64,000 nucleotides of DNA from IMG/VR virus record IMGVR_UViG_3300044712_001062, positions 71,062 through 135,061 of that record. One strand, 5' to 3'. This DNA is from a virus. Below, piece after piece: positions 11,364-53,039 of this stretch. The first letter of the stretch is position 1; every line of letters starts with the position of its first letter. The notes under the pieces were generated by a model. It saw only the letters and a list, made by a program, of their open reading frames with translations, did not search any database and was not told where the DNA came from. The translations under genes were made by a program, and so were the position numbers.

Positions 11364-11494
11364 ACATATTACATGGGCGTATTAGGTTTTAAAGGTTGTT
11401 ATTGGGGTGTCTTGGATTGAGAAAATATGACATTTTGATAGATGGGCTTAAATATATGGATAGATTTTTATAGTTTGGTGTTTTATTTGTATGT

Positions 11495-11560
11495 GCCAAA
11501 CGGGACAGATGACAAGGAAAGAGGAGAATCATTTCCTTTTTCCTGTTGTTTGTTTCAAGG
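11495..11560 (+). ncRNA. hairpin sRNA family copy 1
   Basis: TTTTTATA at 11465, then TTTGTATGTGCC, then a ~25-bp purine/pyrimidine stem with about 8 G-U pairs. Confidence 0.65.
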
Positions 11561-11797
11561 TGGTTTTCGAAATTTTATAATACCCGAGATATCGGTTATT
11601 AAATGCATGTTGTTAACTTTTCTATTTTGTTCAATGTGTCCGGAGCCATCGGACATTGGATATAATACCCCCGAATGGTGTTGTTAAATTATATTAATTG
11701 ATTATTATAATTTGTTCATCGGTCAGTGTAACACGGACCAGCCTAAACTTATAAAGATTTTGGTGCGCAAATGTTTCTGGCTAAAAGAGTTCAAAGA

Positions 11798-11853
11798 CTG
11801 CTCTAAACAAAACAAAGAAGGAAGGTTTTCCCTTTTCGTTTTGCTCGTTAGGC
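11798..11853 (-). ncRNA. hairpin sRNA family copy 2
   Basis: TATATAAA at 11883, TTTGTATGTGCC, a stem, ending TTGTTTAGAGCAG. Convergent with copy 1. Confidence 0.65.
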
Positions 11854-11997
11854 ACATACAAATAAGTATTGACTGTTTATATACTTATTGATGGCACACA
11901 CATTCGAACGCTATTGAGGTTGTTGGTTGGTGGTATGGTTGATCGTTTTATGGATTATAATGGCATGGTGTGATGATGTGAGATGATGATAGGCATT

Positions 11998-12132
11998 TTT
12001 TCGCGGTAACTATAGAGGTTTTTTGTATTGTCTTTTTTTAGAAAAAATACCTGGAAAAGTTTAGGTAAAAATTTCGCGGTAACTGGGAAGACTTTTTTCT
12101 TTGTTTTTTTAAATTAAAAATACCTGGAAAAG
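11998..12132. repeat. imperfect tandem duplication with ~73 bp period
   Basis: TTTCGCGGTAACT at ~11999 and 12072; AAAAATACCTGGAAAAG at 12043 and 12116. Confidence 0.75.
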
Positions 12133-12782
12133 CAAAGTTAAAAAATTTTAGTAAAGTTAAAAGATGTTGAATTGTGTGGTCACTTATATCCTGGGATTAA
12201 TATATTAAAATTTGAATAAAAGTAAGGTGGTTTGATAGGTAGTATTATAGTAGGTTGTGGTGTTGTTTGGTATTTAAAGGAAGATAGATCGATAGGTTTA
12301 TATATTTTTAGATCTAATTTTATTATGTCAAAGGTGAAGTGAATGTATAAATCAAAAATGTATAAAACCAAAGTGGCTTTGTTGTTTGGACTGAATACTG
12401 TATTATTGTATACAATTGTATTTGTATCATGGTTTAAGGTGTTCTGATGTTGTTACAAGGTGAATACCCCCATTTGGTTGAAGGACTTATAAATCAGTAC
12501 AAATGTTTAAACTGTGGACATTATTTACAACTTGTTTCACTTGGTTATAATTATCCAGATATGATAATATGCGATCAGAAAGAATGTTCATATATGAAGG
12601 TGCTATAAAATGGAAAAAATCGAATGTAGTTTAATTACTGCTATGGAGATCATGAATGAGAATTATGCTTTGTATACTTTAGAACGAGATATGACTAATT
12701 ATACCTGGTATCATAATGGTGTTGGATTAGGATCTTACAATGAGTATACAAAGGAATTTGTGTATAGGGAGGTTTGATTATT

Positions 12783-13211
12783 ATGGATAAATCAGAATTA
12801 ATTAAAAAGATACTTGATAACATGGAATATATGGAAGAGATTCGTGGAGGTATCTGGAAATGCAAAGATGAGACTTATCAGGATCTATACTTTGAGGCTC
12901 ATCAAGATATGCTTCCTGATGATTGGAGATATAAGATGATACATGATAGTTTGATCGCGCTCGGGGAAGTCGAAGAAGGCTATGATGTCATGGAAGCATT
13001 AGACAGCCATATACCAATTTATACTCATGAACTCATGGCATGGATGGGATCAAGGAATGATAGATATAGTTATGTTGATCAGGCAATTGAAGATTTTGGT
13101 AAGGCTGACAGCATCATTAATGATATCATGGCGGGATATCTGAAGGAATTGGAAGAGGTTTATTATTCAGTTGATCAGTGGATAGATGAACATGTTGATG
13201 AGGATTTATAA
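12783..13211 (+). CDS. Ocr (T7 gp0.3)-like acidic DNA-mimic protein
   Basis: Very D/E-rich. YDVMEALDSHIPIYTHELMAWMGS resembles T7 Ocr [25 protein letters not shown]. Acidic C-terminal tail; GGAGGT SD upstream. Confidence 0.6.
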   Translation: MDKSELIKKILDNMEYMEEIRGGIWKCKDETYQDLYFEAHQDMLPDDWRYKMIHDSLIALGEVEEGYDVMEALDSHIPIYTHELMAWMGSRNDRYSYVDQAIEDFGKADSIINDIMAGYLKELEEVYYSVDQWIDEHVDEDL

Positions 13212-13693
13212 TGGTAGTGAATATGGAAGACTCAAATCCTATTGCATTGGCTAATGAGATGCATATTGTATATGATAGACTCAAGGATCATGAAGATTCT
13301 TTATGGCCTTTGGAAGATGGGGGACATTACCATAAGGTATTTTTTGGGCAGATATGGATTAGTGATATTTGGAATGATGTTGAAGAAGCGCTTGAATCGT
13401 ATGGTCTTTGGATAGAGACAGGGGAAGATGATGGCGCTGATGTTTACGTATGTGGGAATGACACATTACATTTTTGTAAAAATTGCAAGTGGATGGATAA
13501 AGGAGAGTATGAATTAAGATTAGAGGTTTGTAGATGTTATAAACCTCAAAATATTATCCAAAGAGGAAATATCTTAAAATTTGATCATTGCGATAAGGGA
13601 TCATTGGCTTGCTATTATTATGTAGAAAGGACTGATGATAATGCGAATGACTATAAGGATACATTAGAATTTAAAGCAGGATGTTATCTATGA
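13211..13693 (+). CDS. acidic hypothetical protein with Cys-rich C-terminal part
   Basis: Translationally coupled to the Ocr-like gene (TAATG); contains CKNC. Confidence 0.6.
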   Translation: MVVNMEDSNPIALANEMHIVYDRLKDHEDSLWPLEDGGHYHKVFFGQIWISDIWNDVEEALESYGLWIETGEDDGADVYVCGNDTLHFCKNCKWMDKGEYELRLEVCRCYKPQNIIQRGNILKFDHCDKGSLACYYYVERTDDNANDYKDTLEFKAGCYL

Positions 13694-13905
13694 GTGATGA
13701 TTTGAAATTTTTAGCGGATGAGATCAATAGGAAAAATGCTCTATTGCGATATTATCGTTCAAGGGTTGATCCTCATAGTCATATGGCTGCAATTGCCATA
13801 AGTGGTGAGTTAGAAGGATTGAGAAGGCAAAGGGATCAAGTTAAGGCAGATGTAAGGCTGGATAGGTTGATCAGTAGATATCCAAATGTTAGGAGGTTAC
13901 TTTAA
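13690..13905 (+). CDS. hypothetical helical protein
   Basis: ATGA overlap with the upstream gene. Confidence 0.55.
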   Translation: MSDDLKFLADEINRKNALLRYYRSRVDPHSHMAAIAISGELEGLRRQRDQVKADVRLDRLISRYPNVRRLL

Positions 13906-13920
13906 TTTTTTTTTAATGGC

Positions 13921-14460
13921 CAGTGATATTTTTGTGATATTTTTGTGATATTTTTTTTTCGATTTTTTCAAGTGTTACGAATGTGAGATTTTTCACATCA
14001 CAATTTTTCCAGTGATGTTGGTGTTACGAATGTCCAGGTTAGTGTTATCACAATTTGTTCAGTGATATCACAAAATAGTGTTATGGATTTGATGATTGGT
14101 GTTACTGTGATGTGGGTTTGTATGTGGTGATGTTAGATCGGCGGGTTAATAGTGGGGGGATTGACGAATGGTTGGTGATGTGGGGTTAGTGATATCACTG
14201 GGAATAAAAAACGGGGCGGTAGCGGTGGGTAATACATGAAAGCTGGTGTATATAAATCAATCCCAATATTTTCCAATTTTATCAACCGAAAATTTAATCA
14301 ACCAAAAAAACATATTAAAAATTACACCCATAAAATTTCAAAATTACATCCACACCTCCATTAAATTTTATCAAACGAAAAATCTACCCAACCCCCTCCT
14401 ATTTTTATCAAACGAAAAAATTAACTTTGATACCATCATTCATTCTATCAAACGAAACTT
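13921..14460. repeat. iteron-like repeat cluster at the strand-skew switch (putative replication origin or genome-end region)
   Basis: More than 10 GTG(A/T)TAY motifs in 13921-14200, including GTGTTACGAATGT x2 and palindromic AGTGATATCACT. TATCAA(A/C)CGAAA x4 at ~14280, 14369, 14406 and 14446. The + strand flips from G/T-rich to C/A-rich at ~14230. Confidence 0.6.
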
Positions 14461-14489
14461 TCAAATAATGTAAACAACCACCACCCCTT

Positions 14490-14732
14490 ATGTCTAAAAA
14501 ACGCACTTGCACTTGTGAATTTTGCTCCACCACCTTCCCAACCTACCTCAACGAACTTCTCCGTGGTCGTGCACAAACTTGCTCCAAACAATGTGCAGGA
14601 AAATTCAAGCATAAGAGCGCCACGAGCAAAATATGCCCCATATGTTCAACAAAGTTTTCAACTTACTCCAATAGAACTCATTGTTGCAACGAATGCCAAG
14701 ATATATCAAAGGCACTCCTTTCACAACCTTAA
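14490..14732 (+). CDS. small zinc-finger protein
   Basis: CEFC, TCSKQC, CPIC and CCNEC motifs. Confidence 0.65.
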   Translation: MSKKRTCTCEFCSTTFPTYLNELLRGRAQTCSKQCAGKFKHKSATSKICPICSTKFSTYSNRTHCCNECQDISKALLSQP

Positions 14733-14746
14733 AATAACGTCAATAA

Positions 14747-15022
14747 GTGATCACTATTATGGAACCAATTACCATAATCGGCTATATCCTATCAGCTCTT
14801 ATAGTCGGAATACCCCTAGTCTACACCTATTCGAAAAAACTTGGTCTTGCCCTATCATTCATCTATGAATTCCTAAACATCATCTCATCATACATGAATG
14901 GCGATCTCGATCACGAATTCACAGATTCTGAAAAACTCGCTCTTGCAGATTCAGTAATTGCTCTCGGCAAGCGAATCGACGAAAATCTAGACATCGACGC
15001 CATATTAAATTTTAAAAAATAA
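14747..15022 (+). CDS. small membrane protein (holin-like topology)
   Basis: N-terminal TM helix and charged C-terminus. Confidence 0.5.
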   Translation: MITIMEPITIIGYILSALIVGIPLVYTYSKKLGLALSFIYEFLNIISSYMNGDLDHEFTDSEKLALADSVIALGKRIDENLDIDAILNFKK

Positions 15023-15148
15023 TTGATCATTAAACAAATCTAATTTTTAAACCACAAAAATGATCAGATCTCATAGAAAACTTTTTATAAAGTAAAATTG
15101 CATATTATGTGTAGCATTTATTCGAACCGAAAACCTACAGTGATCACT

Positions 15149-15385
15149 ATGGTAGATATTGCAGCAGAAAAAATCATTAAGGAATATCCAAATGGATATA
15201 CTATTAGACAGGACGCCGATCTGACCAACAAGGAAGATGGAATTACTTACTCCGATTACCAGATCGTCAATCCGCAGGGCAAAGTCCTTGTTCACGATGA
15301 AGATCTTGGAGTTCTCGAATCCTTCATTGCAAACCCAGTGTTCCTTGAGCGCCTGGAAAAATCCGGGTCAATCGTCAAACGCTAA
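15149..15385 (+). CDS. hypothetical protein
   Basis: Likely start MVDIAAE; codon style resembles the highly expressed structural genes. Confidence 0.6.
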   Translation: MVDIAAEKIIKEYPNGYTIRQDADLTNKEDGITYSDYQIVNPQGKVLVHDEDLGVLESFIANPVFLERLEKSGSIVKR

Positions 15386-15497
15386 TTGACAATTAACAAT
15401 TAACTTTTCAAGATACCAAATCACCTCCTTCTATTTTTCCCCAAACAAAACCATCCGAGTAATAAGTTTTATATACTCAACCACCCTACACTACTCC

Positions 15498-16193
15498 ATG
15501 GATTTAACATTAGCAATCATCCTATTCACTTTGATCGCCATAACGATCATCTTCCTATTCCCAGACATAATCGGCCTCATAGCCATATTTGGATTATTCA
15601 CCCTAATGTTTCTATTCCCCCTCATCTTCATAGGCTGCGGAACAAATCAAATCGCCTTTAACGAAGATACTAACACCACAACATTTGGCAAATCCCAATG
15701 GAAATTACCCTGGCAAAAATCCTCGGTAATGCCCAACACCCCTGATAAAATCTACCATGATATAACCCTAACAACTTACACATCTGAAGGAACCCCCATC
15801 AACTTCTACTTCGACATGCAAAATGTCAAATTCAACAAGGTGGGCTTCGATAAATTCCAAATCCACAGCCAATCCGACTACAACAAAGTAATGAACGATC
15901 TAGTAATCCGAATTGTATCCAAACACACCTCAACATGGACCAACGATTACGCTCATTACACCGGGACCAAACTAGACGACGAAATCGGCCAGGAAATCTA
16001 CGACTACATCCAAAATTCAGATTACCATACTCTCTTCAAATACACCGAAACCCCCTATGACAAGAGACGCCTCAACATGTTCCTGTTCTCAATAGCAGGT
16101 AGCAACGAACTCGAAAGTCCCTACACCTGTATAGATTACAGCGGATACTGCCAAGGATTAACCACCGCAACAAACATCAAAAAATCCAATTAA
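15498..16193 (+). CDS. membrane-anchored SPFH/band-7-like protein
   Basis: Two N-terminal TM segments, then GKSQWKLPWQ and TYTSEGTPINF (SPFH-like motifs). TTTATATA box 30 nt upstream. Confidence 0.5.
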   Translation: MDLTLAIILFTLIAITIIFLFPDIIGLIAIFGLFTLMFLFPLIFIGCGTNQIAFNEDTNTTTFGKSQWKLPWQKSSVMPNTPDKIYHDITLTTYTSEGTPINFYFDMQNVKFNKVGFDKFQIHSQSDYNKVMNDLVIRIVSKHTSTWTNDYAHYTGTKLDDEIGQEIYDYIQNSDYHTLFKYTETPYDKRRLNMFLFSIAGSNELESPYTCIDYSGYCQGLTTATNIKKSN

Positions 16194-16234
16194 CACCAAA
16201 ACATTTTTATACTATTAAAAATATACTATAAATC

Positions 16235-16816
16235 ATGAAAGAAAAAATTTTATCAAATCTCATACTTAACACTACTTGTGAATATTCAGAATTCATCATC
16301 CCACTATCATTACTCACACAATCCAACAACCAAACATTATCAAAAAAAGTCACATTCAATGCTGATTGGTGTAATACATCACCCGAAGAAATAAAGAGTG
16401 GTATAGCAAAAACTTCTTTAATGCTATCGAATCGCATAGATCTCGAAATTATAAAACTATTAATTAATTTTCAAAACCCACTTACTTTCATATCTAAAGA
16501 TAAATGGAAAAATGGAGGGATTGCATATGACATTGGGGAATCAATTCCACAAGAACACATAACACTATTCTATCCACTCAAACTATACCAGTATAATATA
16601 CATGAGCAACTTAAAGAACTTTCAAATTTCCATACAATAAAAGCAATTGGCACTATGAAATTGAACCGCATAAATAAGGCAATAGTAATCGCATCTGAAA
16701 CCCCAATACAAATAACATATAATATATCATTCGATGGCGATCAAATGGGCAATTTCGATTACACTATTAAAATAGATCCAAATGCTGATATCTACATCAT
16801 AGAAAATATTTGCTAA
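16235..16816 (+). CDS. truncated, diverged paralog of the major capsid protein
   Basis: Four colinear blocks shared with 26569..27519: NRIDLEII/NKRDLNIL, W..GG..YDIG/W..AG...GDIG, FYPLKLY/YYPLKLF, IGTMKLN/IGSTKLN. Confidence 0.7.
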   Translation: MKEKILSNLILNTTCEYSEFIIPLSLLTQSNNQTLSKKVTFNADWCNTSPEEIKSGIAKTSLMLSNRIDLEIIKLLINFQNPLTFISKDKWKNGGIAYDIGESIPQEHITLFYPLKLYQYNIHEQLKELSNFHTIKAIGTMKLNRINKAIVIASETPIQITYNISFDGDQMGNFDYTIKIDPNADIYIIENIC

Positions 16817-17027
16817 AATCACCCACCCCTATTTTATTCCCTGCAAAAAATATGCGCTAATGGTTCTCCAAGTCATTATATACAACCTGAACACCCCCAA
16901 CCTACCAAACATTTAAATACTTTAACTACCAACATACTAAATGCAAGGGATGTTGTTAACTGATCCACTAACAAACCCTTAAAATTCGATCATTAATTAA
17001 TCAATGATCACCAAGGAGCAAATTCAA

Positions 17028-17252
17028 ATGTCAAACGAAGTATCTTACCCAATCGCAACTACCGAATCAATCATTAAGAAGAATGCAGGCGTTCACCGCA
17101 TTTCACATGGCGCTGGAGTAAAACTCGCAAGTCTCGCAGCATCACATATCATCGATCTCGCAACCAAGGCCAACACCGTGGCAACTCACGCTGGACGCAC
17201 TACGATCCGCGAAGAAGATATCGATGTAGTTCTCGGCCTCTCCTCAAATTAA
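17028..17252 (+). CDS. archaeal histone (HMf-type single histone fold)
   Basis: PIA...IIK..AG..RIS...HAGRTTIREEDI matches the HMfB pattern; GGAG SD at 17015. Confidence 0.92.
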   Translation: MSNEVSYPIATTESIIKKNAGVHRISHGAGVKLASLAASHIIDLATKANTVATHAGRTTIREEDIDVVLGLSSN

Positions 17253-17325
17253 AAATTTAACTTCTCCAAGTCTAAAATCTGAATCATACGTGGCATAATC
17301 AACCATTACTTTTTTAAATTATCAC

Positions 17326-17398
17326 AGTCCTATAGTGTAGTGGCCAACCATACTGGATTTTGAGTCCGGTGACACCAGTTCGAATCTGGTTAGGACTA
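17326..17398 (+). tRNA. tRNA-Gln(UUG)
   Basis: Acceptor AGTCCTA/TAGGACT-A (A1:U72, typical of archaeal tRNA-Gln), anticodon arm CTGGA-TTTTGAG-TCCGG, T arm ACCAG-TTCGAAT-CTGGT. Confidence 0.93.
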
Positions 17399-17570
17399 TC
17401 ATGAAAACCTTAAATTTCTCCAAACCTTCACCAAACCCAACCATTCAAATGATCGCACAAATGGTCCATCACAACGAACTACCATTTACACACGCTCTAT
17501 ACATCCTCCAGGTCGATCCTGAAGAACTTCAAGCACTACTAACAATCTACCCTAAAAAAGTTTAAAAAAA

Positions 17571-17891
17571 TTAATGTGAATGATTACAAGTAGTTGCCTG
17601 ACAATCACAACCAATCGATGTCCAAGAAGTATTATGAGTAAGTTCAATACCATTCACATAAAGAAGCCCACTCACTACACTACCACTTGGCACTTCAACA
17701 TCTTCTAAATCCTGATTGACAAATTCCTCGAATTCTTCTTGCAATCTACCTAATTCCTCACACTTCCGATCAATTTCACCTTCCAATCTCTCAATCTTAC
17801 TCAATTTCCCCTTAATCTGATCCTTAACCCACTTAATTTTCTTCTCCATCATTTCACTCTCAACTTCATCAACTAATTCGCCAATAATCAT
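17571..17891 (-). CDS. coiled-coil protein
   Basis: E/K heptad-rich; GAGGT SD upstream. Confidence 0.6.
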   Translation of the reverse strand: MIIGELVDEVESEMMEKKIKWVKDQIKGKLSKIERLEGEIDRKCEELGRLQEEFEEFVNQDLEDVEVPSGSVVSGLLYVNGIELTHNTSWTSIGCDCQATTCNHSH

Positions 17892-18800: not shown

Positions 18801-18943
18801 ATAACAAACTATATACAACAACACATATAAAAGCCCAACCCAAAAGTTTAAATAATCTATTTTTTTCGATCTCAACGACTACTATTTGCGAACTTTTATA
18901 ACTCACGCGCACATAAAACCCTGCTAAAAAAGACCCGGAAAAA

Positions 18944-19007
18944 CTACTCTAACAAAAACAAAGGAAAAGGAAATGATCTTCCTCTTCTTTTATTCTTGCG
19001 TTGGGGT
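18944..19007 (-). ncRNA. hairpin sRNA family copy 3
   Basis: TTTATAAA at 19037, TTTGTATGTACC, R-rich/Y-rich stem, ending TTGTTAGAGTAG. Confidence 0.6.
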
Positions 19008-19088
19008 ACATACAAATAAGAATAACCAATTTATAAAACTATTGTTCCACGATAATTATTAATGTTATAATAACAAATATACTCGTAT

Positions 19089-19673: not shown

Positions 19674-20063
19674 TCAAATTTTAATAACCTTATAGTCATT
19701 TGGCAAATCCTCAACCTCATCCACCACAATCCCTTCTACAAATTTTGAATTATCCTCCTCAATGACCTCCAACTCCCAATTTTTACCATCATCATCTTCA
19801 GGTAAATCAAACGCCCTACTACATTTCGAACACAACGCATATCTACCAGACTTAAAAATCGGATTAACATAACATATCCTATAATTATAACTATAACATT
19901 CTGGGCACTTAATCTTCTCAAAAATAGGATCGTTTAATAAATCCTGCTCATCTACATCAAATGGTTGAACCTTCGTTACTTCATTCCATACATTCACAAC
20001 AACCCACATAATCACAAACATCAATAACATACCTATTAGTATTTCCACGATCATAACATACAA
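19674..20063 (-). CDS. membrane-anchored zinc-ribbon protein
   Basis: N-terminal TM segment; CPEC...CSKC. Confidence 0.6.
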   Translation of the reverse strand: MYVMIVEILIGMLLMFVIMWVVVNVWNEVTKVQPFDVDEQDLLNDPIFEKIKCPECYSYNYRICYVNPIFKSGRYALCSKCSRAFDLPEDDDGKNWELEVIEEDNSKFVEGIVVDEVEDLPNDYKVIKI

Positions 20064-21206: not shown

Positions 21207-22682
21207 GTGTCAGAAACTTTATCACTCAAAGAACGCCTTGAATATGCCAAAACAGTCAATAAGGCACGCAACGATCCAATTTGGTTCTTAAGAGATGTGA
21301 TGGGATGGAAAACAATATTCCCAAAACAAGAAGAAATTATTAGAACATTTTATCAATATAAATATGATCAAACACTTCCGGAATTTAAAAAGTTAATAAT
21401 CAAAGCGGGTCAAAGATCGGGTAAAACGGTATTAGGAGGCAAGATAGCCTCTTTTGAATTTTTCGAACTGGTGAGTTTGGACAACCCACATGAACACTTC
21501 AATGTTCTTCCAAGTCAGCCAATTGCTATTTCTTGTGTTGCAGCAGGCCGTGAACAAGCAATGGACGGTATCTACGCAGTTATGCGCAATGATATTGAAC
21601 AAAGCGAGTGGTTTAATCAATGGTTCGATCTAAAAATCAATGATGGTCGAATTACCTGCCCAAAAAAGAATGTATTTGCCCAAGTGACTGCAGCGAAAGC
21701 AGGGAGTGGCGCAGGCACTGGATATACCTCAAAATTTTCATTAGCCGATGAAATAGACCTATTTCAGCAAACGGACTCCAAAGTGGGCGCAGAAATTGTT
21801 TGGTCAAAAATGGTTAACTCTACTCAAAGTTTAGGTATAAAAGGTAAGTGCATGGCCATTTCATCCACTCAATTTTCGGGTGGGATGATTGAAAAATTGT
21901 ACGGTGATGGAATATATGAAGATACCACATTAACTTACGATCTCAAAACATGGGAATGTAATCCACGATTCAATGAAGCCGCTCTCCGTGAAGAATATAA
22001 ATATAAAATGGAAATGTTCTGGAGAGATTTTGCAAATCGACCCGATGTATCTGGTGGACTAGTATTCCCACAAGGAGTTCGTTTCAACCGCAATATCACA
22101 AATGTATTCGAAACTGATCGAATTCCCGAAGAATCACAACGACATTATCATGTTCTTGCGTGCGATCCTGCATACCGCAACGATTCTTTTGGTATGTCAT
22201 GTGGGTATCGTGATGGCAATCACATAATTATCGACGGGGTAATGAAATTCGAAAAACGCGATACAAATGACGCATATGTCCTTCCATCCGACATCGAAGC
22301 AGGAATCGAAAAAGCAATACACGATCTCAATGTCACCACCCTCATATATGATACTGATACCATGATGCAAGTCATCGAGAAATGTGATAATCAATGGGGT
22401 GTTGAAACGCTTAAACATATTGCTGATTCTGAAGTTTATGGAACTTGGATGAGCCTGAATGATGATGTTGGTGAATTTAACTTGGATGTTGTATATAACG
22501 AACATTTAAAGAGAGAAGCCGAACAACTCATCAAAGTTCAAAAAGCACGAGGTATAAAAGTCGATCACACTGCCTACTCAAGCAAAGATTTGGCAGATAC
22601 GACTGCTCACTGTATTTGGTATTTAGCCAACAACGAAGGCGGATCCATCTACACCCCAAGTGGTGGAATATACCGCATCTAA
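21207..22682 (+). CDS. terL: terminase large subunit
   Basis: GQRSGKT Walker A, LADEID Walker B, ISS coupling motif, ACDPA...DSFG and KDLAD nuclease motifs. Confidence 0.93.
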   Translation: MSETLSLKERLEYAKTVNKARNDPIWFLRDVMGWKTIFPKQEEIIRTFYQYKYDQTLPEFKKLIIKAGQRSGKTVLGGKIASFEFFELVSLDNPHEHFNVLPSQPIAISCVAAGREQAMDGIYAVMRNDIEQSEWFNQWFDLKINDGRITCPKKNVFAQVTAAKAGSGAGTGYTSKFSLADEIDLFQQTDSKVGAEIVWSKMVNSTQSLGIKGKCMAISSTQFSGGMIEKLYGDGIYEDTTLTYDLKTWECNPRFNEAALREEYKYKMEMFWRDFANRPDVSGGLVFPQGVRFNRNITNVFETDRIPEESQRHYHVLACDPAYRNDSFGMSCGYRDGNHIIIDGVMKFEKRDTNDAYVLPSDIEAGIEKAIHDLNVTTLIYDTDTMMQVIEKCDNQWGVETLKHIADSEVYGTWMSLNDDVGEFNLDVVYNEHLKREAEQLIKVQKARGIKVDHTAYSSKDLADTTAHCIWYLANNEGGSIYTPSGGIYRI

Positions 22683-24500: not shown

Positions 24501-24590
24501 ATTTTTCATTTTTACGCGACAAATCTCAAGGCTCATATGGAGAACCAATTCCCTAACACCACAATTTTTGAAAGAACAAACGCCCCCAAA

Positions 24591-24661
24591 TACTCCTTAA
24601 CAAAACGAAAAAGAAAGTCCGGATCTCATCCCGTCTTCCTGTTCATTTTGTTGCGTGAGGC
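24591..24661 (-). ncRNA. hairpin sRNA family copy 4
   Basis: TTTATATA at 24692, TTTGTATGTGCC, R-rich/Y-rich stem, ending TTGTTAAGGAGTA. Lies between portal and protease genes. Confidence 0.6.
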
Positions 24662-24785
24662 ACATACAAATATACTCTTAACTATATATAAAACTATTGT
24701 ATAATATACATTTTTAATACTTAAAATTATAAAACATTATTATCACTACCTTTATATAAGGACAATTTTATAAATCTTTGCCAAG

Positions 24786-33122: not shown

Positions 33123-33167
33123 TCCATTACCCATACATTTATATAACTTCAAAACTAATTTGTATGT

Positions 33168-33232
33168 GCCCAACATGAACAAACAGTTCAAAGCAAGGAT
33201 CTTTTTTTCCTTGTTTTTGTTTGTTTAGGATT
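33168..33232 (+). ncRNA. hairpin sRNA family copy 5
   Basis: TTTATATA at 33138, TTTGTATGTGCC, stem TGAACAAACAG..AAGCAAGG / CCTTGTTT.TTGTTTGTTTA. Confidence 0.65.
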
Positions 33233-33356
33233 ATACGGCATTGTATCGCTGAACTCTCAACATCAACAAACAACTATTTTATTTTTAATCCAAATGATAT
33301 AGCCAACGCTATCCAATTTTAAACTTTGAGAAATGAATTGCCGACAACCTCAAAAC

Positions 33357-33412
33357 TACTCTAAACAAAACAACAAAGAAGGGGTTCCCTCTTTTATGTC
33401 TTGTCCATCGGC
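33357..33412 (-). ncRNA. hairpin sRNA family copy 6
   Basis: TTTATAAT at 33441, TTTGTATGTGCC, a stem, ending TTGTTTAGAGTAG. Convergent with copy 5. Confidence 0.65.
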
Positions 33413-33522
33413 ACATACAAATATATCGCAACTATTATAAAAATGTATTGATCACCGTGCATAAAACATCACCGGCGAATGACCCTCCTGATTTTATATG
33501 TGGTAAATAACATTGAATTGGT

Positions 33523-45549: not shown

Positions 45550-47738
45550 TGATACGGCCATTTGACAACGTAATGTGGGAAACCTCAACCAATTGGGCAT
45601 TATATGATCCTATCATACCAAGGGGTGTATTTGCCCTCAATATTGATAACTTGGAGATCAAAATTGGTAATGGATCGACAGTTTGGTCATCATTGGGTTA
45701 TGTAGGTGGAACTACCATTGGTGATCATTTAATTCAAAGCGATCGAGATCCATTACAGGATGAAATTTTAATTTATGATGAATCATCATCAAAATGGTTA
45801 TACCGTTTGCACGCTGTAGTTGACACTGCTACTAATTGGGAATCTAATAATGATGTATTTCCAACATTTGCCCTGTTAGTCGAAAAGAATGAATTAAGTA
45901 ATTTGTATACTGGTCGATTTAAAATTTCAGATGGAGTAACTCAAAGTCATCAAATTCCATGGGCAGGCAGTGATATTGATTTAACAAGTTTTCCAACTGG
46001 ATATGGTATAAAATTTAACGGCACTCAATTTGAGGCTGCTCATTTTATTGAAATTGGTGATAGTCCAGCATCAACAATTCCAACTGGGATAAAATTTGCT
46101 CGTGATGATGGAATATGGGCAGAACCTGGAAGTGGTTATGTAGTTGGAATTCCAGGAGCCACAAATAATTCCATAGTAGTATTTGATGGCACTAGTGGAT
46201 ATAATATTAAAAATAGTGGTGTATCATACCTAGACTTGGTTCCATCAATTGGCACACCCAATGCATCATTTCAAATAAATAACGGTGTTAAGTTATTCGA
46301 TGTAAGTGGTGAATTACACGTTAAAACCGCAACAAATGCACTATCTCATATTAGATCTGCTTCATTATATTCTGAAGTTGCAACTCATAATACTGTATAT
46401 GTTGGTGGTTATCCAACTGAAGCAACAAGCGTGACACTTACTGGTGATGGCACATATTTGTATGTTGATGGTGGAAAGTTATTCACAAATTTAACTGGTG
46501 GCCATGGAAGTGGAAGTGAAAGTGATTTATTAGATGGATACCATGCAAGTGAATTTGCCACATTAAATCATATACATGTCCAGCAACCAGCAAGTGGAGT
46601 TTTATTAACCAGTAAAATTGGTTCGACATATAATAATGTTCAGCAATGGGTAGATGTAATTCAATCAAGTGGCAGAATAAGTGGTGGATTAATAACCGCA
46701 CATTCACCAGCAAATGGAACTGTAGATGTTAGTGCATTAACAGGATTTATCAAACTGACCGATGATTCCATTGGAAATGTTGAATTTTTCGATCTTGCTG
46801 CATCAACAAGCGTAGCACTTACTGATAATCAAACTAACTACATTTATGTAACTTACAATTCTGGAAATCCACAAATATTAGTAACTACTGATAGATCATC
46901 GATTAGGCAAACTGATCAATTTACCATTGGAAGGGCATTTAGAAGTGGAACTGCAGTAGAAGTTTTGGTTAGTGGAATTAACTTATATAATAAATCAAGA
47001 TTGATTCATGAAAAATGGATTGATACATTTGGCGGAGTGAGTTATGCAAGTGGCCTTACAGTATCAGCAACTGGCCTTAAACCTGCATTTACCGCTGGAG
47101 TTTTATACGCAGGTAGTAATAAAATAAATGTCAATGCATTAGATTGTAATACTTCTGGGACATTTAACGCATATTATACCACTGATAATGGAACTACTTG
47201 GACAATTCAAACTGCACAAACATCAATAAACAACACACAATATAACAATGCAGCAACAGGTCTTGCAGATTTATCAAACAATCAATATGGTGTGCATTGG
47301 TTATATATATGTCCAGAAGGCTCTATGTATATGTTATATGGCAAAGCATCATACACACTCGCGCAAGCACAAGCAGCAACAGGTCCAGTTGCACCCATAC
47401 CAAATTACCTCGCACAATGGGCAAAATTGGCCGCAAAGATAATTGTATTAAAAAGCGCAACCAGTATATATTCAATTACTCTTGCGTGGTCTACTCAATT
47501 TCCAGTGCAACTCCCCGGAGATCACAATTCACTTGCAAGTTTACAAGGTGGGACATCAGGACAATATTACCACTTAACATCATTAGAATATACAACGACT
47601 GTTCCTCGTTATTATGGTGAACTGGCAAGTGCTCCTGCTACATATAAACCAGGTGACTCATATTGGAATACCGGAGATGTATCATTAAAGACATTTATTA
47701 GTTATGGAGTTGGTTGGAAAACTATAACAACCACATAA
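45549..47738 (+). CDS. tail fibre protein with two Mtd-N/hyaluronidase-like N-terminal repeats
   Basis: W...PII.RG...IKIGNGSTVWSSL and a second copy FKISDGVT..HQIPW; also DLLDGYHASEF. Confidence 0.7.
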   Translation: MIRPFDNVMWETSTNWALYDPIIPRGVFALNIDNLEIKIGNGSTVWSSLGYVGGTTIGDHLIQSDRDPLQDEILIYDESSSKWLYRLHAVVDTATNWESNNDVFPTFALLVEKNELSNLYTGRFKISDGVTQSHQIPWAGSDIDLTSFPTGYGIKFNGTQFEAAHFIEIGDSPASTIPTGIKFARDDGIWAEPGSGYVVGIPGATNNSIVVFDGTSGYNIKNSGVSYLDLVPSIGTPNASFQINNGVKLFDVSGELHVKTATNALSHIRSASLYSEVATHNTVYVGGYPTEATSVTLTGDGTYLYVDGGKLFTNLTGGHGSGSESDLLDGYHASEFATLNHIHVQQPASGVLLTSKIGSTYNNVQQWVDVIQSSGRISGGLITAHSPANGTVDVSALTGFIKLTDDSIGNVEFFDLAASTSVALTDNQTNYIYVTYNSGNPQILVTTDRSSIRQTDQFTIGRAFRSGTAVEVLVSGINLYNKSRLIHEKWIDTFGGVSYASGLTVSATGLKPAFTAGVLYAGSNKINVNALDCNTSGTFNAYYTTDNGTTWTIQTAQTSINNTQYNNAATGLADLSNNQYGVHWLYICPEGSMYMLYGKASYTLAQAQAATGPVAPIPNYLAQWAKLAAKIIVLKSATSIYSITLAWSTQFPVQLPGDHNSLASLQGGTSGQYYHLTSLEYTTTVPRYYGELASAPATYKPGDSYWNTGDVSLKTFISYGVGWKTITTT

Positions 47739-47775
47739 TATTAATAACATTACTTACTATTTTATATATATATTT

Positions 47776-48609
47776 ATGACATCTTCAAATGCACAGCGAG
47801 TTTATGGTTTATTAAATGGTAATCAATGTTTGATATGGTTACATAGATTTGCTCTTGTTTACGGAAGTGATACATTAAATCCAGATCAGACAACTGGAAA
47901 TGTATATTATGGCGATCAAACTGGAGTATACACCAAACAATGTAGTTATAAATACAATGGTTATTTATCGATTCTTTGGGTTATATCAGGGTTGACCATT
48001 GCAGTTGCCGAAGGTAGAATTTGTAAACGAAATACAAATGTAATAATCATTGAAAGTTATGGAGAATCTGCCACAACACAACCAATTTCACTATGGTTCA
48101 ATACTGGAACTGGCGAATCTCCAATTTGGAATAAATTAAACTCGGTTATTGCAAATGGAACGATGCCATATTCGTCAAGTAATTACAATTTCAGAGAACG
48201 ATTAACTGAAAAGTCTGGTGCTACTAAAATTGATGATTGTGAAACATGCCCTGAAACTGGAGATTCCGGTTGTTTGGTATGTGGAGTTGCCAGCAGATTT
48301 AAAGTTGTAACAGTAACTTTTAGTATTGCTACCAATTGCTGTAATTATGCAACATTGACACCAAGCGAATCCACTGAAATTGGGGAAACGACTTACAATT
48401 ATGGATTGCATAACCTTGGAATAAATACCATACCATTTACAAATTTATATGTAGAATACAAATTGCTATGTAAATCAATATTAATTTATGTATATTCCAA
48501 GGAAGAAAATAGTAAATATAGCATGGTATATTACCTTGACGATCTTGGTGTATGGAATTTAATTACTGAAGGATATAAAGAAGATATAGGAGAATATAAT
48601 GACCTTTGA
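47776..48609 (+). CDS. Cys-containing virion-associated protein
   Basis: 277-aa ORF in the tail operon. Confidence 0.5.
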   Translation: MTSSNAQRVYGLLNGNQCLIWLHRFALVYGSDTLNPDQTTGNVYYGDQTGVYTKQCSYKYNGYLSILWVISGLTIAVAEGRICKRNTNVIIIESYGESATTQPISLWFNTGTGESPIWNKLNSVIANGTMPYSSSNYNFRERLTEKSGATKIDDCETCPETGDSGCLVCGVASRFKVVTVTFSIATNCCNYATLTPSESTEIGETTYNYGLHNLGINTIPFTNLYVEYKLLCKSILIYVYSKEENSKYSMVYYLDDLGVWNLITEGYKEDIGEYNDL

Positions 48610-49267
48610 TATTAATTCACTTAATGGAAAAGTGTTATCAATGTATACCGGAACAAATTTGATCCAACGTGGAACAATCATCAGCACATCAATTGGAAAT
48701 ATTGTCAAATTTGATAGAGATTCATTGTATAGCCCAGGATCTAATTTGGTAAATACCATAAATATTGATTCATCATATGCAAATGTAACAAATACATTTT
48801 GTGGGGAAATAACTTTCCAAAAGTATACTACTACCCATACAGTTGATTTGTGTAATATAGTTCAAACAAATAGTGTAAAAATATCATTTTCGTTTGCCAT
48901 AAAAGTAGAAATTTATGATGTTGCTACCGAAACATGGTTTATGCCCGCTGTAACTGGAATCGATACCGATCCATGTAAATATATCAAACTTGAATTATTT
49001 TATGGTGGATATGCTGGAACAGTGTTCAATGGAACATCAAATATTTATACCGGCGAATATACTGGAAATGTATGTGGAGATCTAACAAATATCAATGAAC
49101 GTAAAAATGGAGATGTCAGATTAATAGCCAGTGCAAATGGTCAATACACTAATACAACTCCAGTTAGAATGACCTTTACACTTTCGCACATAACATATAC
49201 TGATTGCAATGGTGATGATATTGTAGATGGAGATAAATGTTTATTAATCGGAACTTACACTGGGTGA
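48599..49267 (+). CDS. beta-rich virion-associated protein
   Basis: 222-aa ORF in the tail operon. Confidence 0.5.
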   Translation: MTFDINSLNGKVLSMYTGTNLIQRGTIISTSIGNIVKFDRDSLYSPGSNLVNTINIDSSYANVTNTFCGEITFQKYTTTHTVDLCNIVQTNSVKISFSFAIKVEIYDVATETWFMPAVTGIDTDPCKYIKLELFYGGYAGTVFNGTSNIYTGEYTGNVCGDLTNINERKNGDVRLIASANGQYTNTTPVRMTFTLSHITYTDCNGDDIVDGDKCLLIGTYTG

Positions 49268-49272
49268 ACTAA

Positions 49273-50592
49273 ATGAAATCAACATCTTATCCATTTGATT
49301 TTTTAAAGAATTGTACAACATCATCACTTACATTTAGCGGATGTGAAACAACAAATTTTGGATACCCAAACCTACCAATCACCGCACTCTTATGGCAATT
49401 CACTCCTCCAGACACATCATCAACTTTAACTGCATTACCAACATCGACACCTGCAAATAAATGTTTGAATTCCAATTATTATAGATATACTTGGGATTTG
49501 AATTATGGTAAAACACCAAGTATTCCAATTAATGATATGAAAGTAGTTGAATATGATTTTAATACTCAACCATATTATGCAACTGATTTCAATTCAGTCA
49601 ATTTCAACATTTATGTTAAGACAGCCGATTTGTATACTAACCAAACCCCGAAGTATTTAGAAAAATTAACCAACAATTGTGTGAATTTCACAGGTTCTGG
49701 GCCTGCTAATACTTGGTATACTGCAAGTGGTTCACATGGAAGAGTCATTAATGGTATGGCATGTGGAATGGTTGGGTTATACAGTGGGTATAATGCTGGA
49801 ATTTTTTCAGTAATGCTCGCATCACCATACGATAAAGGAGCAATTAAAATTTTATCCCAAGGAAACTACTATTGGGTAAAATGCGGATTTCTTCCAGGGG
49901 CGGGGGGCGCACAAGGAAGCCCTCTTGATTACACTGAAGATGGAGAATGGTGCACCCTGTATACAACTGGATATGGGCAATATGTTGCTTCATTTTACAA
50001 CAGTAGCCTCACAGCAAATACACGAACTGTTGGTTTTTCAGGACCAAACCCATCATATTTACCATCATGTGTATATGCAGGAGAATACATAATAATCCCA
50101 TTTTATTCATGGTCTTGGCCATTTACTGAATGTTATATGAGAGTAACCAACCTAAATGGCTCAATTAATGACGAAATGTCAAACATCCCAAGGAATAAAT
50201 TCTTATACAACTCAAAAATAGCAGTTGAAATGGATGGAAAATTATACTTGTTCCATGAAGATATGATTTATTACAATGTATTGAACTCGATTAGTGATCC
50301 GGGAACATTACCAACCACTGTAGATGGAAATATTTATATTACAGATCCAGGAAACATTCGTGGCAGTTCATTTGCTGTGCATCTTGGAAAAATATATGCG
50401 ATCAGAGAACAAAAATTAGTAGTTTTGATTGAAGGTTCTCATTTCGAAGAAATACCAGGAGTAACATTGCCAATTGGTGGAGGTTCTATAGTTTCATATG
50501 GCGATTACTTGGTAATTATCATGAGCAAACAACCAGATGGCCGATATTTACCAAACATTGAAATCATTCCAAATTCAATGTTGGAAATTTGA
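49273..50592 (+). CDS. virion-associated protein, possible beta-propeller
   Basis: Kelch-like segments (DGKLYLF, LGKIYAI, YGDYLVI). Confidence 0.5.
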   Translation: MKSTSYPFDFLKNCTTSSLTFSGCETTNFGYPNLPITALLWQFTPPDTSSTLTALPTSTPANKCLNSNYYRYTWDLNYGKTPSIPINDMKVVEYDFNTQPYYATDFNSVNFNIYVKTADLYTNQTPKYLEKLTNNCVNFTGSGPANTWYTASGSHGRVINGMACGMVGLYSGYNAGIFSVMLASPYDKGAIKILSQGNYYWVKCGFLPGAGGAQGSPLDYTEDGEWCTLYTTGYGQYVASFYNSSLTANTRTVGFSGPNPSYLPSCVYAGEYIIIPFYSWSWPFTECYMRVTNLNGSINDEMSNIPRNKFLYNSKIAVEMDGKLYLFHEDMIYYNVLNSISDPGTLPTTVDGNIYITDPGNIRGSSFAVHLGKIYAIREQKLVVLIEGSHFEEIPGVTLPIGGGSIVSYGDYLVIIMSKQPDGRYLPNIEIIPNSMLEI

Positions 50593-50635
50593 TTATCCAC
50601 CTATTTTATATTAAGTAAACTATCATTACACTTTA

Positions 50636-52909
50636 ATGTCTAGATTCTCTGCTTGGGCGTATAGAAAATCACTAACAATTTCAAATGCTGGTAGTGAACT
50701 AACCGGATACCCCATAAAATTCACAATAAACATTGGATCTGGAACCAGCACCGGCGAAACTATATATATACCAAGTGGGCATTGTAAAAGCGACTTCAGC
50801 GATATACGATTTTATAATCCATATGGAGATTTATCCTATAGTTATTTTATCGAAAGTTATACAAGTAATACCACGGCGATTGTCTGGGTAAAATTCAATA
50901 CAATATCGATATCAGGATTAACAATATACTTAATCTATGGAAATGCACTTGCAAATAGTGAAAGTAATGGGACCAATACTTTTACGTTTTTCGAAGGATT
51001 TTCATCAAATACCATAGGAACAGTATGGACCGAATCATCAACATTTACAACCCACACAATTGAAAACGGCGGTTACCACAATCAAATTACTGTAGCGGCT
51101 GATAAATCAACAACTCTCACAAAAACCACTGCACTTGCATCCACCTCAATTTGCAGAGCTAATATTTCACTACTTGGTGTATCTGGCAGAACTCCGCCAT
51201 GGTGGTATGTAGAATTTGGATATAATGCCAGCCGCATCCAAAATGGATATTGGGGAGGGGTCGTTGGTGGATTTAACCCAAATTATCCAACTGACGATCT
51301 ATGGATAGAATGGTCTGATGCATATACCACAAACAATGTCAAAGTTTATCGTAACGGTACGGTAGTTTCTACACGATCTGCAACATTTGCCACAAACAAA
51401 CGTCCTGAATTTTTTATTCGGACAGCCAGTTCTGAAATAATCAACATATATATTAAAAATGTTTCAGCCCGTCAATATACAGCAACTCCCCCGACACTTG
51501 GAACTTGGACATCCGAAGAATATAACGTGGATAGTGGAAATATCCTATCATTAGTCGTAACTCCACTTACTGGAATTTTACCATTAACCCCAACAATAAC
51601 AGTAAATATCCTCGAACAACTAACCAACTTCACCCTATTATATGGTGATGGCGAAACTTACTCACCAGGAACTCTTAACGCATCATTCTTAACAACCCAC
51701 ACATATGACGAATTTGGAACTTTCTTCGTTCATGCCCAAGGATACGATACAAGTAACAAATTACAAATTTCAAATGCCACAGTAACAGTCTCAAAAAATC
51801 CAGTTGATACATCATTCGCCATATCACAAACTTTAAACTCTATATCATTCACTGATACATCAACAGGAAGTCCCAATGAATGGTGGTGGGAATTTGGAGA
51901 TTCATCTAATAGCGATGTGCAAAACCCAACTCACATATACGATACGCCAGGAACTTACATAGTAACACTTTACTCATCCAACCAACAATACAGTGATTCA
52001 TATTCAACTACCATCACCATTGCAAACCCAATACCAACACTTAACATATCCATATATACACATGATGATTACAACATTCCTGGAAAACTTACATTCACCC
52101 CTACAATCACTACTAACAAATCCCTCAACGAATATATAACAAATTTAATTTGGACCATAGATGGCACCACATACAACATTGACAGCCCAACAATAGTATT
52201 CGATGAAAGTGGAACAAAATCAATCTCATGCACAATATCAAACAATTACAATATTTCAACTACAGCAGCAACAACTATAACACTTGGCCAATCTCCAGAT
52301 GCCAACTTCAAACCAAGTTACCTAAATGTAATTACCAACACACTCCCAGTCAGTGTTCAATTTACCAATTTATCGCTTGGGGAAAACTTAACATATATTT
52401 GGAATTTCGGAGATGGGCATTCATCAACAGTCACCAGCCCGACAAATTCATATGCAAATTATGGATTTTACAATGTCACATTAGACGCTACAAATTCAGC
52501 AGGAACTTCAACTAAAACATACACTAACTGTATTAAAATCCACTATGCCGCAAAAACATTCATCGAAAAACTAAACTTTATCGAGGATCAATTTAGTTCA
52601 TTCGACGTGAAAACATTCGAAGAACCCATTGAATTTTCTACGCAAATAGTCCCTGCGAAAATTTTCAGCGAGACTACCTGTTATATCCAAAAGGAAGTCC
52701 CAGACACCCCAGGCCTCGATGAATTCGGCAATTTATCATTCTACAGACAACTTGACGAATGGGGAAAATTGATCATTGGAACAATTAATGCCGTTGGCCA
52801 TAAAATCCTCAAAGTAGCGGGATTGAGCGATCAAACTGGATTAACATTCTTCCGAACTAAAGAACTTGAAGAAACTGTCTATTATGAACTGGACATGGAC
52901 AGACAATAA
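50636..52909 (+). CDS. DUF2341 + multiple PKD domain adhesin
   Basis: WAYRKSLTI...DFSDIRF...IVWVK...YGN...SNG..TF.FFE (DUF2341); WEFGD/WNFGDG...NPTH.Y..PG.Y.VTL (PKD). Confidence 0.88.
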   Translation: MSRFSAWAYRKSLTISNAGSELTGYPIKFTINIGSGTSTGETIYIPSGHCKSDFSDIRFYNPYGDLSYSYFIESYTSNTTAIVWVKFNTISISGLTIYLIYGNALANSESNGTNTFTFFEGFSSNTIGTVWTESSTFTTHTIENGGYHNQITVAADKSTTLTKTTALASTSICRANISLLGVSGRTPPWWYVEFGYNASRIQNGYWGGVVGGFNPNYPTDDLWIEWSDAYTTNNVKVYRNGTVVSTRSATFATNKRPEFFIRTASSEIINIYIKNVSARQYTATPPTLGTWTSEEYNVDSGNILSLVVTPLTGILPLTPTITVNILEQLTNFTLLYGDGETYSPGTLNASFLTTHTYDEFGTFFVHAQGYDTSNKLQISNATVTVSKNPVDTSFAISQTLNSISFTDTSTGSPNEWWWEFGDSSNSDVQNPTHIYDTPGTYIVTLYSSNQQYSDSYSTTITIANPIPTLNISIYTHDDYNIPGKLTFTPTITTNKSLNEYITNLIWTIDGTTYNIDSPTIVFDESGTKSISCTISNNYNISTTAATTITLGQSPDANFKPSYLNVITNTLPVSVQFTNLSLGENLTYIWNFGDGHSSTVTSPTNSYANYGFYNVTLDATNSAGTSTKTYTNCIKIHYAAKTFIEKLNFIEDQFSSFDVKTFEEPIEFSTQIVPAKIFSETTCYIQKEVPDTPGLDEFGNLSFYRQLDEWGKLIIGTINAVGHKILKVAGLSDQTGLTFFRTKELEETVYYELDMDRQ

Positions 52910-52938
52910 AATTTTTCGAAGAATAGACAATCACCAAA

Positions 52939-52996
52939 TACTCTAAACAAAACAAAAAGAAAAAGATATTCTCTTCTTCTTGCTTTGTCCCTTGGC
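52939..52996 (-). ncRNA. hairpin sRNA family copy 7
   Basis: TTTATATA at 53027, TTTGTATGTGCC, ~20-bp G-U-rich stem, ending TTGTTTAGAGTA. Confidence 0.65.
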
Positions 52997-53039
52997 ACAT
53001 ACAAATATATCTCTACCACTATATAAAGATAGTAGATGA

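Follow-up and report, generated by a model that had tools for sequence, protein, structure and literature searches.

To our knowledge, the known non-coding RNAs of archaeal viruses are few. Phage lambda OOP RNA, which is short and self-terminated and is made from a promoter of its own, lies convergently at the 3' end of a gene; it is single-copy and bacterial, and its action relies on antisense overlap with cII. We analyzed a window of 64,000 nt from the virus record IMGVR_UViG_3300044712_001062 (record positions 71,062-135,061; the whole record, hereafter the genome, is a 135,061-bp single contig), which carries seven of the genome's 17 copies of a promoter-plus-hairpin unit. Unlike lambda OOP, the unit occurs in 17 copies, and its overlap with coding sequence is minimal. 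We propose that the units are self-terminating small-RNA genes with a dedicated stable-RNA-type promoter that also serve as one-way terminators, a reading that could equally well prove right or wrong. None of the nearest published systems joins an archaeal stable-RNA promoter to a variable, G-U-rich hairpin that is predicted to be transcribed, in 17 dispersed copies of alternating orientation.

In the tailed archaeal virus HF2, class I and class II intergenic repeats (IRs; Russ, Pfeiffer and Dyall-Smith 2021, PMC8707807) are also dispersed between genes. As described in the parts of that paper covered here, they share with the units a B recognition element (BRE), a TATA box, a conserved region around a G start, and the retention of sequence and position among related viruses. 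The HF2 IRs are, according to the same parts, 29-58 bp promoters of long mRNAs; some also yield counter-strand transcripts, and no hairpin is described there. The units differ in that a long hairpin with U runs follows directly after the promoter and neighboring genes keep their own promoters. The genome was searched for sequences of the HF2 class I motifs (alpha, beta and gamma) and the class II consensus: TCTTTAAGTC, CGTCTNNTAGAG and CTAAAGACTTAGAA were absent, and the 8-mer substrings CTTTAAGT and CCCTTTAC occurred twice each, away from the units.

The promoter-early stem-loop (PeSL) cassettes of T4-type phages (Arbiol et al. 2010, PMC2839356) are small, numerous and intergenic, and each joins a strong promoter of the host type to a stable stem-loop that ends transcription. 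In the portions of that paper covered, G-T pairs are noted in the stems, the cassettes lie beside plastic genes (nrdD, DNA polymerase), and positions vary between relatives, as they do here. However, the PeSL stem-loop precedes the start site and is followed by a ribosome-binding site and a gene, with the cassette oriented with the genes, whereas the hairpin of our units lies after the start (approximately +7 to +60), 7/17 units point against or away from genes, and the promoter is archaeal. A further likeness concerns the promoter alone. The covered parts of Li, Reich and Olsen (2009, PMC2699501) give the methanogen A box as TTTATATA, a preference of Methanococcales stable-RNA promoters for G(+1), T(-1) and C(+2), and an A+T-rich proximal element from -11 to -2, and the units share a box of this type, these initiator bases and such an element. 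In those parts the promoters drive cellular rRNA and tRNA, whereas here the promoter is predicted to drive a virus-specific hairpin RNA, and the proximal box of the units is invariant over 9-12 nt, far beyond the weak pattern reported there. Finally, the T4 origins oriF and oriG (Kreuzer and Brister 2010, PMC3016281) share with the units a promoter with a short template-near transcript and a virus RNase H; in the covered parts of that source they require an A+T-rich element for unwinding and do without a hairpin in the RNA, whereas the units have no clear unwinding element or consistent skew.

An earlier reading of the window from its letters alone (the sequence-only reading) had proposed seven sites with one layout. 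The 12-mer TTTGTATGTRCC was found as an exact match at every position it named (11486+, 11862-, 19016-, 24670-, 33159+, 33421- and 53005-), and all seven sites are exact TTTGTATGT(G/A)CC, with the G of GCC at 11495, 11853, 19007, 24661, 33168, 33412 and 52996. When up to two mismatches to TTTGTATGTRCC were allowed, 17 sites were found in the window versus 15.7 expected; the 10 beyond the seven are at chance level, and the four of these that were inspected all lacked the unit layout. Alignment of the seven copies revealed an invariant TATA region, a 12-mer invariant except at the R position, and a tail of the TTGTTTAGAG type. From 5' to 3', a unit consists of a CAATA-like stretch, a TTTATATA-type box, a spacer, TTTGTATGT, (G/A)CC, a short variable leader, a purine-rich arm, a loop of 3-11 nt, a U-rich arm ending in UUUUGUUU, a tail (U)AGAGUR or variant, and usually more U. 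The spacer between TATA and TTTGTATGT, earlier given as 14-18 nt, is 12-15 nt when recounted from the 8-mer TATA. The copies in the window are as follows.

11465..11575, plus strand: copy 1 (genome 82547+); TATA from 11465, box TTTGTATGT at 11486-11494, predicted start at G 11495, 25-bp hairpin with 7 G-U pairs, tail CAAGGUGGUUUU; left half of a convergent pair
11778..11885, minus strand: copy 2 (genome 82923-); predicted start at G 11853, 18-bp hairpin, tail UUUAGAGCAGUCUUU; right half of the pair with copy 1
18932..19037, minus strand: copy 3 (genome 90077-), in a divergent spacer; A-type box TTTGTATGTACC, predicted start at 19007, 20-bp hairpin
24586..24692, minus strand: copy 4 (genome 95731-); predicted start at 24661, 22-bp irregular hairpin
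33138..33245, plus strand: copy 5 (genome 104220+); predicted start at 33168, 19-bp hairpin, degenerate tail UUUAGGAUUA
33337..33443, minus strand: copy 6 (genome 104482-); predicted start at 33412, 17-bp hairpin, tail UUUAGAGUAGUUUU; right half of a pair
52921..53027, minus strand: copy 7 (genome 124066-); predicted start at 52996, 20-bp hairpin with 6 G-U pairs, tail UUUAGAGUAUUUGG

The 25 bp estimated earlier for copy 1 held, with 7 rather than about 8 G-U pairs. The pair of copies 1 and 2 sits where the two gene arms diverge, in a region of 1.1 kb. The gene downstream of copy 3 and co-directional with it has its own TATA 31 nt before the ATG, and copy 4 lies antisense between two plus-strand head-module genes (559 aa and 374 aa). 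Copy 5 is the left half of a pair between a 167-aa gene and a 2318-aa gene, and copy 6 could form an outer closing stem, GCCGAU/GUCGGC. Copy 7 begins 35 nt past the stop codon of a 141-aa gene on its own strand and points toward the 3' end of a 757-aa plus-strand gene.

Scanning the whole 135,061-bp genome yielded 17 units, so that the earlier count of seven is right for the window and too low for the family. A covariance model built from nine of the 17 units, whose E-values are rough, recovered precisely the same 17 at E <=0.03 and no others. The ends of the contig (1-175 and 134887-135061) are identical over ~175 bp, as a direct terminal repeat or an overlap left by circular assembly would be, which suggests that the genome is complete. 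Genes were called in the genome as greedy, ATG-only open reading frame (ORF) picks, and 17/17 units were intergenic.

Each unit is preceded by a BRE/TATA element, and at the start T is followed by GC in 17/17. A TATA 8-mer was present in all 17 units, in support of a multi-copy viral family with archaeal-type promoters. Its first T lay 29-32 nt before the G of GCC in 16/17, slightly wider than the 29-31 nt proposed from the seven copies; for the remaining unit (genome 67299+) the script chose another 8-mer, and by eye TATTTATAA lies 28-30 nt upstream. Among leaderless genes of the same genome (at least 60 aa), the TATA-to-ATG distance peaked at 30, 31 and 32 nt (10, 6 and 4 cases), and 32 genes of the genome carry a TATA-like box at leaderless distance. 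Promoters of methanogen stable-RNA genes were reportedly first described by Wich in 1986 and by Thomm and Wich in 1988. Because the unit TATA spacing equals that of the leaderless genes, the units likely start, by analogy, at the G of GCC, in agreement with the sequence-only reading. With that start, TTTGTATGT would occupy -9 to -1 and is better regarded as a promoter-proximal box than as the RNA 5' end. The sequence-only reading had missed this, as it had the alternating orientation of the units and the one-way terminator character of the 3' arm, both described below. The unit sequences show a TTTATATA-like TATA, a distance of ~30 nt to the start and a purine at +1 after T, as expected of methanogen promoters. 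Together with the initiator preference given in the covered parts of PMC2699501, the T before GC in 17/17 indicates that the unit promoter is, judged by its sequence, of the archaeal (methanogen) stable-RNA type.

The same box also occurs ahead of a protein gene.

19674-20054 (with promoter to 20095), minus strand: leaderless 126-aa gene with the same TTTGTATGT box, its ATG one base past the box

This arrangement shows that the box is a promoter-proximal element. The 126-aa gene was the sole protein gene seen with the exact unit box, with a near match at genome 21314-21517 among the listed TATA-fronted genes, and it may be co-regulated with the hairpin units. Its product has a hydrophobic N-terminal helix, a CxxC...CxxC arrangement and an acidic tail, and gave no Pfam match. 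The box was absent from the promoters of the two viral tRNA genes checked. The left arm of the genome encodes a MarR/TrmB-type winged-helix regulator (Pfam E 1.4e-08 and 2.9e-07; one of 42 proteins scanned), which we infer to be a candidate binder of the invariant promoter box.

An ATG lies inside TTTGTATGTGCC in the invariant box, and leaderless micro-peptides could be imagined to start there; in copies 19016- and 24670- the frame closes at the tail stop. However, the resulting ORFs span 4-65 codons, the stop in the tail is in frame 0, 1 or 2 in 3, 5 and 9 of the 17 units, respectively, indels between copies keep no frame, and the ATG is 4 nt upstream of the predicted start. Coding micro-ORFs are contradicted by the frame counts and ORF lengths, and this explanation is scarcely credible.

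To characterize the hairpin, we folded both strands. On the TATA strand, the seven window copies gave -20.8 to -33.6 kcal/mol (z -2.0 to -5.7), with 0, 6, 0, 0, 0, 0 and 0 of 200 shuffles folding equally well, versus -7.6 to -18.4 kcal/mol on the opposite strand. The sense fold was more stable than the antisense fold in 17/17 genome units (means -22.1 vs -13.4 kcal/mol), and the hairpins contain 16-25 pairs, 1-7 of them G-U, which bears out the proposed pairing through G-U on the TATA-defined strand. Sequence alignment (MAFFT) with RNAalifold placed the arms out of register, owing to indels and low complexity, and predicted 9-10 pairs. Because sequence alignment was poor for the arms, the covariance model and per-copy folding with permutation tests were used instead. 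The 5' and 3' arms of the same copies totaled -316.6 kcal/mol vs -229.9 +/- 11.4 for permuted partners, and 0/20,000 permutations reached the observed value. In an alignment fitted to the model, and hence biased toward structure and composed of related copies, 80.8% of cells paired vs 74.6% in shuffled alignments (0/500), changes on both sides were seen in 12/18 pairs (4/500 shuffles), and six of six slid controls were lower. Hairpin pairing is kept through compensatory change beyond controls, as in structured RNAs. The copies share the basal helix GGACAAGA/UUUUGUUU and the tail and differ in the upper stem; a conserved base with a free upper stem looks like a protein-binding platform.

The downstream part of the units is rich in T runs on the sense strand. 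Runs of at least four T averaged 2.7 per 85 nt (+1 to +85) vs 0.64 genome-wide, and each of the 17 units has one or more such runs within +26 to +85. On the antisense strand the mean was 1.18 over a longer stretch, and 4/17 units had none. Archaeal RNA polymerase terminates at oligo-T on the transcribed strand. By this rule for intrinsic terminators, the sense-specific T runs predict that each unit should be a strong one-way stop.

Copy-specific outer stems between the leader and the sequence after the tail were also seen, such as GCACAA/UUGUGC, GCCACA/UGUGGU and GCCGA/UCGGC, with several more in related viruses. Leader-tail complementarity was modestly above that of permuted partners: the observed value was reached by 681/20,000 permutations and, with another cutting, by 463/20,000 for the 17 units of this genome, 1,270/20,000 for 14 units of relatives and 199/20,000 for all 31. 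The RNA would be ~60 nt long if it ends in the 3' arm and up to ~95 nt with the outer stem.

On the basis of these features, we propose the following sequence of events. Host RNA polymerase would read each unit as a self-contained small transcription unit, with BRE/TATA and the invariant box ATATTTGTATGT (-12 to -1) setting the start at the G of GCC. The RNA would consist of a short leader, a 16-25 bp hairpin with a purine 5' arm and a U-rich 3' arm, the tail (U)UUAGAGUR and a further U run, and in about half of the copies an outer stem would join the leader to the post-tail sequence, giving a stable RNA of ~60-95 nt. Since U runs are found only on the sense strand, the unit would stop transcription entering from its promoter side, and through the common box one factor could switch 17 units and at least one protein gene together. 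The sequences themselves show the architecture of the units, their strand-specific fold, the copy-specific pairing of the arms, the independence from neighboring genes and the conservation in related viruses. That the units are transcribed, where their RNAs begin and end, that transcription terminates there, that the units are co-regulated and that they have any role in trans are inferences from the DNA. The roles suggested by the sequence-only reading (a dsRNA-like decoy, a ligand of a host RNA-binding or defence protein, or a guide precursor) are neither favored nor disfavored by these data. If the RNAs are made, they would amount to a regulon of stable viral RNAs, jointly controlled and sharing a protein-platform-like base, and offer a handle on viral control of host transcription, RNA decay or defence.

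Several observations weigh against this proposal. Swapped arms still averaged -13.2 vs -18.6 kcal/mol for own arms, as purine and pyrimidine arms pair generically. The covariation argument is weakened accordingly: the earlier claim of structure conserved over sequence stands in that own arms beat permuted ones, and is less striking than it appeared, the conserved structure being partly generic. About half of the units have a weak outer stem or none, and U runs within the 3' arm would end the RNA before the tail, which fits poorly with inclusion of an outer stem. RNase H was the only viral RNA-binding or RNA-processing candidate found by Pfam among 91 left-arm proteins. Six minus-strand units start 12-43 nt past the stop of a co-directional gene, the position of a plain terminator. 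Moreover, orientation alternates along the genome (+-+-+-+-+-+---+--; runs test P = 0.011; for the six plus and six minus units of the left arm, P = 0.002), forming seven inward-facing pairs 0.26-4 kb apart and three single minus units. Such alternation hints at a cis role and is not explained by a purely trans-acting RNA.

The last two observations also favor a rather unlikely alternative, in which the units are cis-acting boundary cassettes like the PeSLs of T4-type phages, with the hairpin and U tract stopping transcription that enters them. In its fuller form, which is improbable to the same degree, the promoter would be a roadblock or restart point, the flanks a recombination substrate that shuffles gene blocks, and the RNA a by-product. 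The sense specificity of the T runs is consistent with this explanation, and the inward pairs bracket gene blocks. The block at genome 9500-13479, between units 9437+ and 13484-, carries genes for dCMP deaminase and AdoMet decarboxylase and for an anaerobic ribonucleotide reductase in two pieces (NrdD; 589 aa plus a separate C-terminal part), an indication that the host is anaerobic. Another pair brackets a metallophosphoesterase gene, three pairs enclose just non-coding DNA or tiny ORFs, and the PolB gene ends 40 nt before a unit. Unit positions also turn over between relatives, copy 4 being absent from the corresponding spacer of the relative L008, which has an extra unit elsewhere, and PeSLs are described in the covered parts of PMC2839356 as flanking nrdD and a DNA polymerase gene and recombining with each other. 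However, a terminator would not need the promoter that is invariant in 17/17, and three units lie in divergent spacers with nothing to terminate. Selection acts on the own-strand transcript, and inverted repeats would flip blocks rather than excise them. In the PeSLs as covered, moreover, the stem-loop lies inside the promoter or ahead of it, and a ribosome-binding site and its gene come next, whereas here the hairpin is predicted to be transcribed and the following gene is served by a TATA of its own. If the units do act in cis, an archaeal virus would be dividing its 135-kb genome into transcription blocks by one-way stops.

The inverted pairs could also be read as the termini of a miniature inverted-repeat transposable element (MITE)-like or composite transposon, with the single units as solo remnants. 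Seven inverted pairs, three of them with 260-530 bp between starts, and positions that vary among relatives would suit such an origin. Against it, no target-site duplications were seen (the longest shared flank word averaged 4.9 nt vs 5.3 in mismatched pairs), and pair partners showed neither greater similarity nor greater complementarity than non-partners. The arms differ between copies, unlike those of transposon copies, the scanned proteins included no transposase family, and the conserved outer part is a textbook promoter with correct spacing. We regard mobile-element ends as highly improbable.

Units 2343-, 13484-, 23176-, 37523- and 90077- precede co-directional genes within 145-433 nt, as would be expected if the unit promoter drove the next gene and the hairpin were a regulated early stop or a 5' stabilizer of its leader. 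The HF2 intergenic repeats, promoters of long transcripts in the covered parts of PMC8707807, offer a precedent. However, the genes after four of these units (2343-, 13484-, 23176- and 90077-) have their own TATA ~31 nt before the ATG, at leaderless distance, so the unit promoter is not needed for them. In addition, 7/17 units face solely a convergent gene or a partner unit, without a co-directional gene ahead of it, and units in the structural module mostly oppose the genes. A role as 5' leaders or attenuators is thus very unlikely.

We examined the encoded proteins with Pfam. The scan covered 91 proteins of the left arm (39 + 42 + 10), mostly of at least 85 aa, ORFs of <85 aa being excluded, and 19 selected proteins of the right arm; 10 left-arm cassette proteins received a separate Pfam look, and for one left-arm set 25 of 26 families were among the matches listed. 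The left arm encodes PolB, a UvrD-type helicase, a RuvB-like ATPase, RNase H, nucleotide-metabolism enzymes and methyltransferases, and no RNase III, Cas6, Lsm, L7Ae or primase family was found by Pfam among these 91 proteins.

This gene content raises another explanation, which we consider distinctly unlikely, namely that the units are transcription-primed origins comparable to T4 oriF and oriG. The purine arm would form an RNA-DNA hybrid that RNase H trims and PolB extends, and a convergent pair would be, with the same doubtful standing, a bidirectional origin without primase. On this account, to be taken no less cautiously, the virus would lack its own primase and the 17 units would be an RNA-polymerase-primed multi-origin system whose purine tract survives RNase H like the retroviral polypurine tract; if the units do prime replication, the missing primase would be explained. 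The geometry of the convergent pairs suits two leading strands passing each other, and T4 origins, according to the covered parts of PMC3016281, have a promoter, form an R-loop and undergo processing by RNase H. Own-strand GC skew was higher downstream at 14/17 units, a count that is inflated because members of tight pairs share one value, and local skew changes occur at ~36.5, 90, 104.5 and 124 kb. However, the two largest skew inversions (~57-60 kb, and an abrupt one at 85.2 kb, window ~14,100) have no unit nearby, and the skew between the 37- and 67-kb pairs is opposite to that of two origins with G-rich leading strands. An R-loop would not need an RNA hairpin with G-U selection, which would compete with it, and a weak rU-dA 3' end would be a poor primer. 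The A+T content over +81 to +181 was 0.67 vs 0.64 for the genome, giving no clear unwinding element, and a primase could sit in the right arm or among ORFans, or the host primase may serve. As a separate observation, the sense strand of genes between the ~57-60 kb and 85.2 kb inversions is C/A-rich.

Returning to the small-RNA gene proposal, we examined related viruses for the unit. Relatives of the capsid protein ranged from 85% down to 33% identity, those at 84% being on contigs of 130-133 kb, and DNA was compared for relatives at 82%, 72%, 63% and 44-50% capsid identity. The contig of one relative is labelled as a Methanospirillum metagenome-assembled genome, and the sources of the clade are digesters, sludge and soil. 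The gene order of the head/tail module is conserved in relatives. The unit family was present in relatives down to 44% capsid identity with diverged boxes, e.g., TAGGTATGTGCA, TATTATGGTGCCC and ATATATATTGCCCC. L012 and L007 have a convergent pair in the spacer syntenic to that of copies 5 and 6, between the 167-aa homologue and the giant tail gene, and L014, L015 and L021 have a single unit in the matching spacer. In L008 (82% capsid identity), from which copy 4 is missing as noted above, the extra unit lies where the gap in our genome is 28 bp. A clade of tailed viruses of ~130-140 kb keeps 10-17 copies per genome of a promoter-plus-hairpin unit. Inside the pair spacer of L012 (17780-17930) and L007 (16615-16725), two partly palindromic GTCCAC copies were seen by eye; these are absent here.

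Searches beyond the clade were also performed. Rfam 15 gave no match over the whole window except a tRNA at 17326-17398, and in a permissive Rfam scan of 11400-11950 the best hit reached 22.7 bits vs a threshold of 60 (E 0.21). With nothing at the Rfam 15 gathering threshold, the sequence-only reading was right that no known family is recognizable, and the covariance-model search it had proposed recovered the 17 units and found members in the relatives. A strict pattern scan of IMG/VR returned 6 loci, all one unrelated coding sequence without TATA or hairpin, and of the 80 loci listed from a loose scan (108 stretches), 0 fitted the covariance model at E <=0.1. Capsid tblastn against GenBank phages gave no match, and a search of IMG/VR with a portal-like protein gave no relatives. 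Comparison by eye with consensus features of K-turns, box C/D, Sm sites, CRISPR repeats and retrons showed no consistent likeness. The full-text literature searched yielded analogues only; a multi-copy family of hairpins was not described there for any virus whose promoters are of the methanogen type.

The covariance model was run against 151 genomes of the order to which the Methanospirillum-labelled genome belongs, and two had a match. One match is in virus-like contigs of that labelled genome, and apart from such contigs the family was not found in these 151 host-type genomes. The other (L140, G126:C4:154914-155000) is a purine/pyrimidine hairpin at the end of a gene; a long T run follows it, it lacks a promoter box, and its genome (G126) has no capsid relative. 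This one example indicates that ordinary terminators in this order can mimic the hairpin half of the viral unit.

Two further loci were noted. For the 491-aa protein (window 21207-22682), the tblastn match is split by a gap of 0.4-1.3 kb in several relatives (L007, L010, L011 and L012), which could reflect an intron, an intein or an inserted gene there. The 9-mer TGTTTAGAG occurs 11 times in the genome, nine times in hairpin units and twice at window 7694-7893 (genome 78755-78954), where the two copies lie on the plus strand, 54 nt apart, flanking GTATGTGC. On the minus strand, 7694..7893 could encode a putative TATA-fronted RNA with a perfect 16-bp closing stem that would bear the antisense of TGTTTAGAG. 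This putative RNA would be complementary to the tail of copy 2 over 13 nt without a mismatch and to 10/17 units over at least 9 nt, and its mean longest complement to the units was 8.8 nt vs 6.9 in 55 control segments. The locus may be what is left of a unit, or it may supply an antisense partner.

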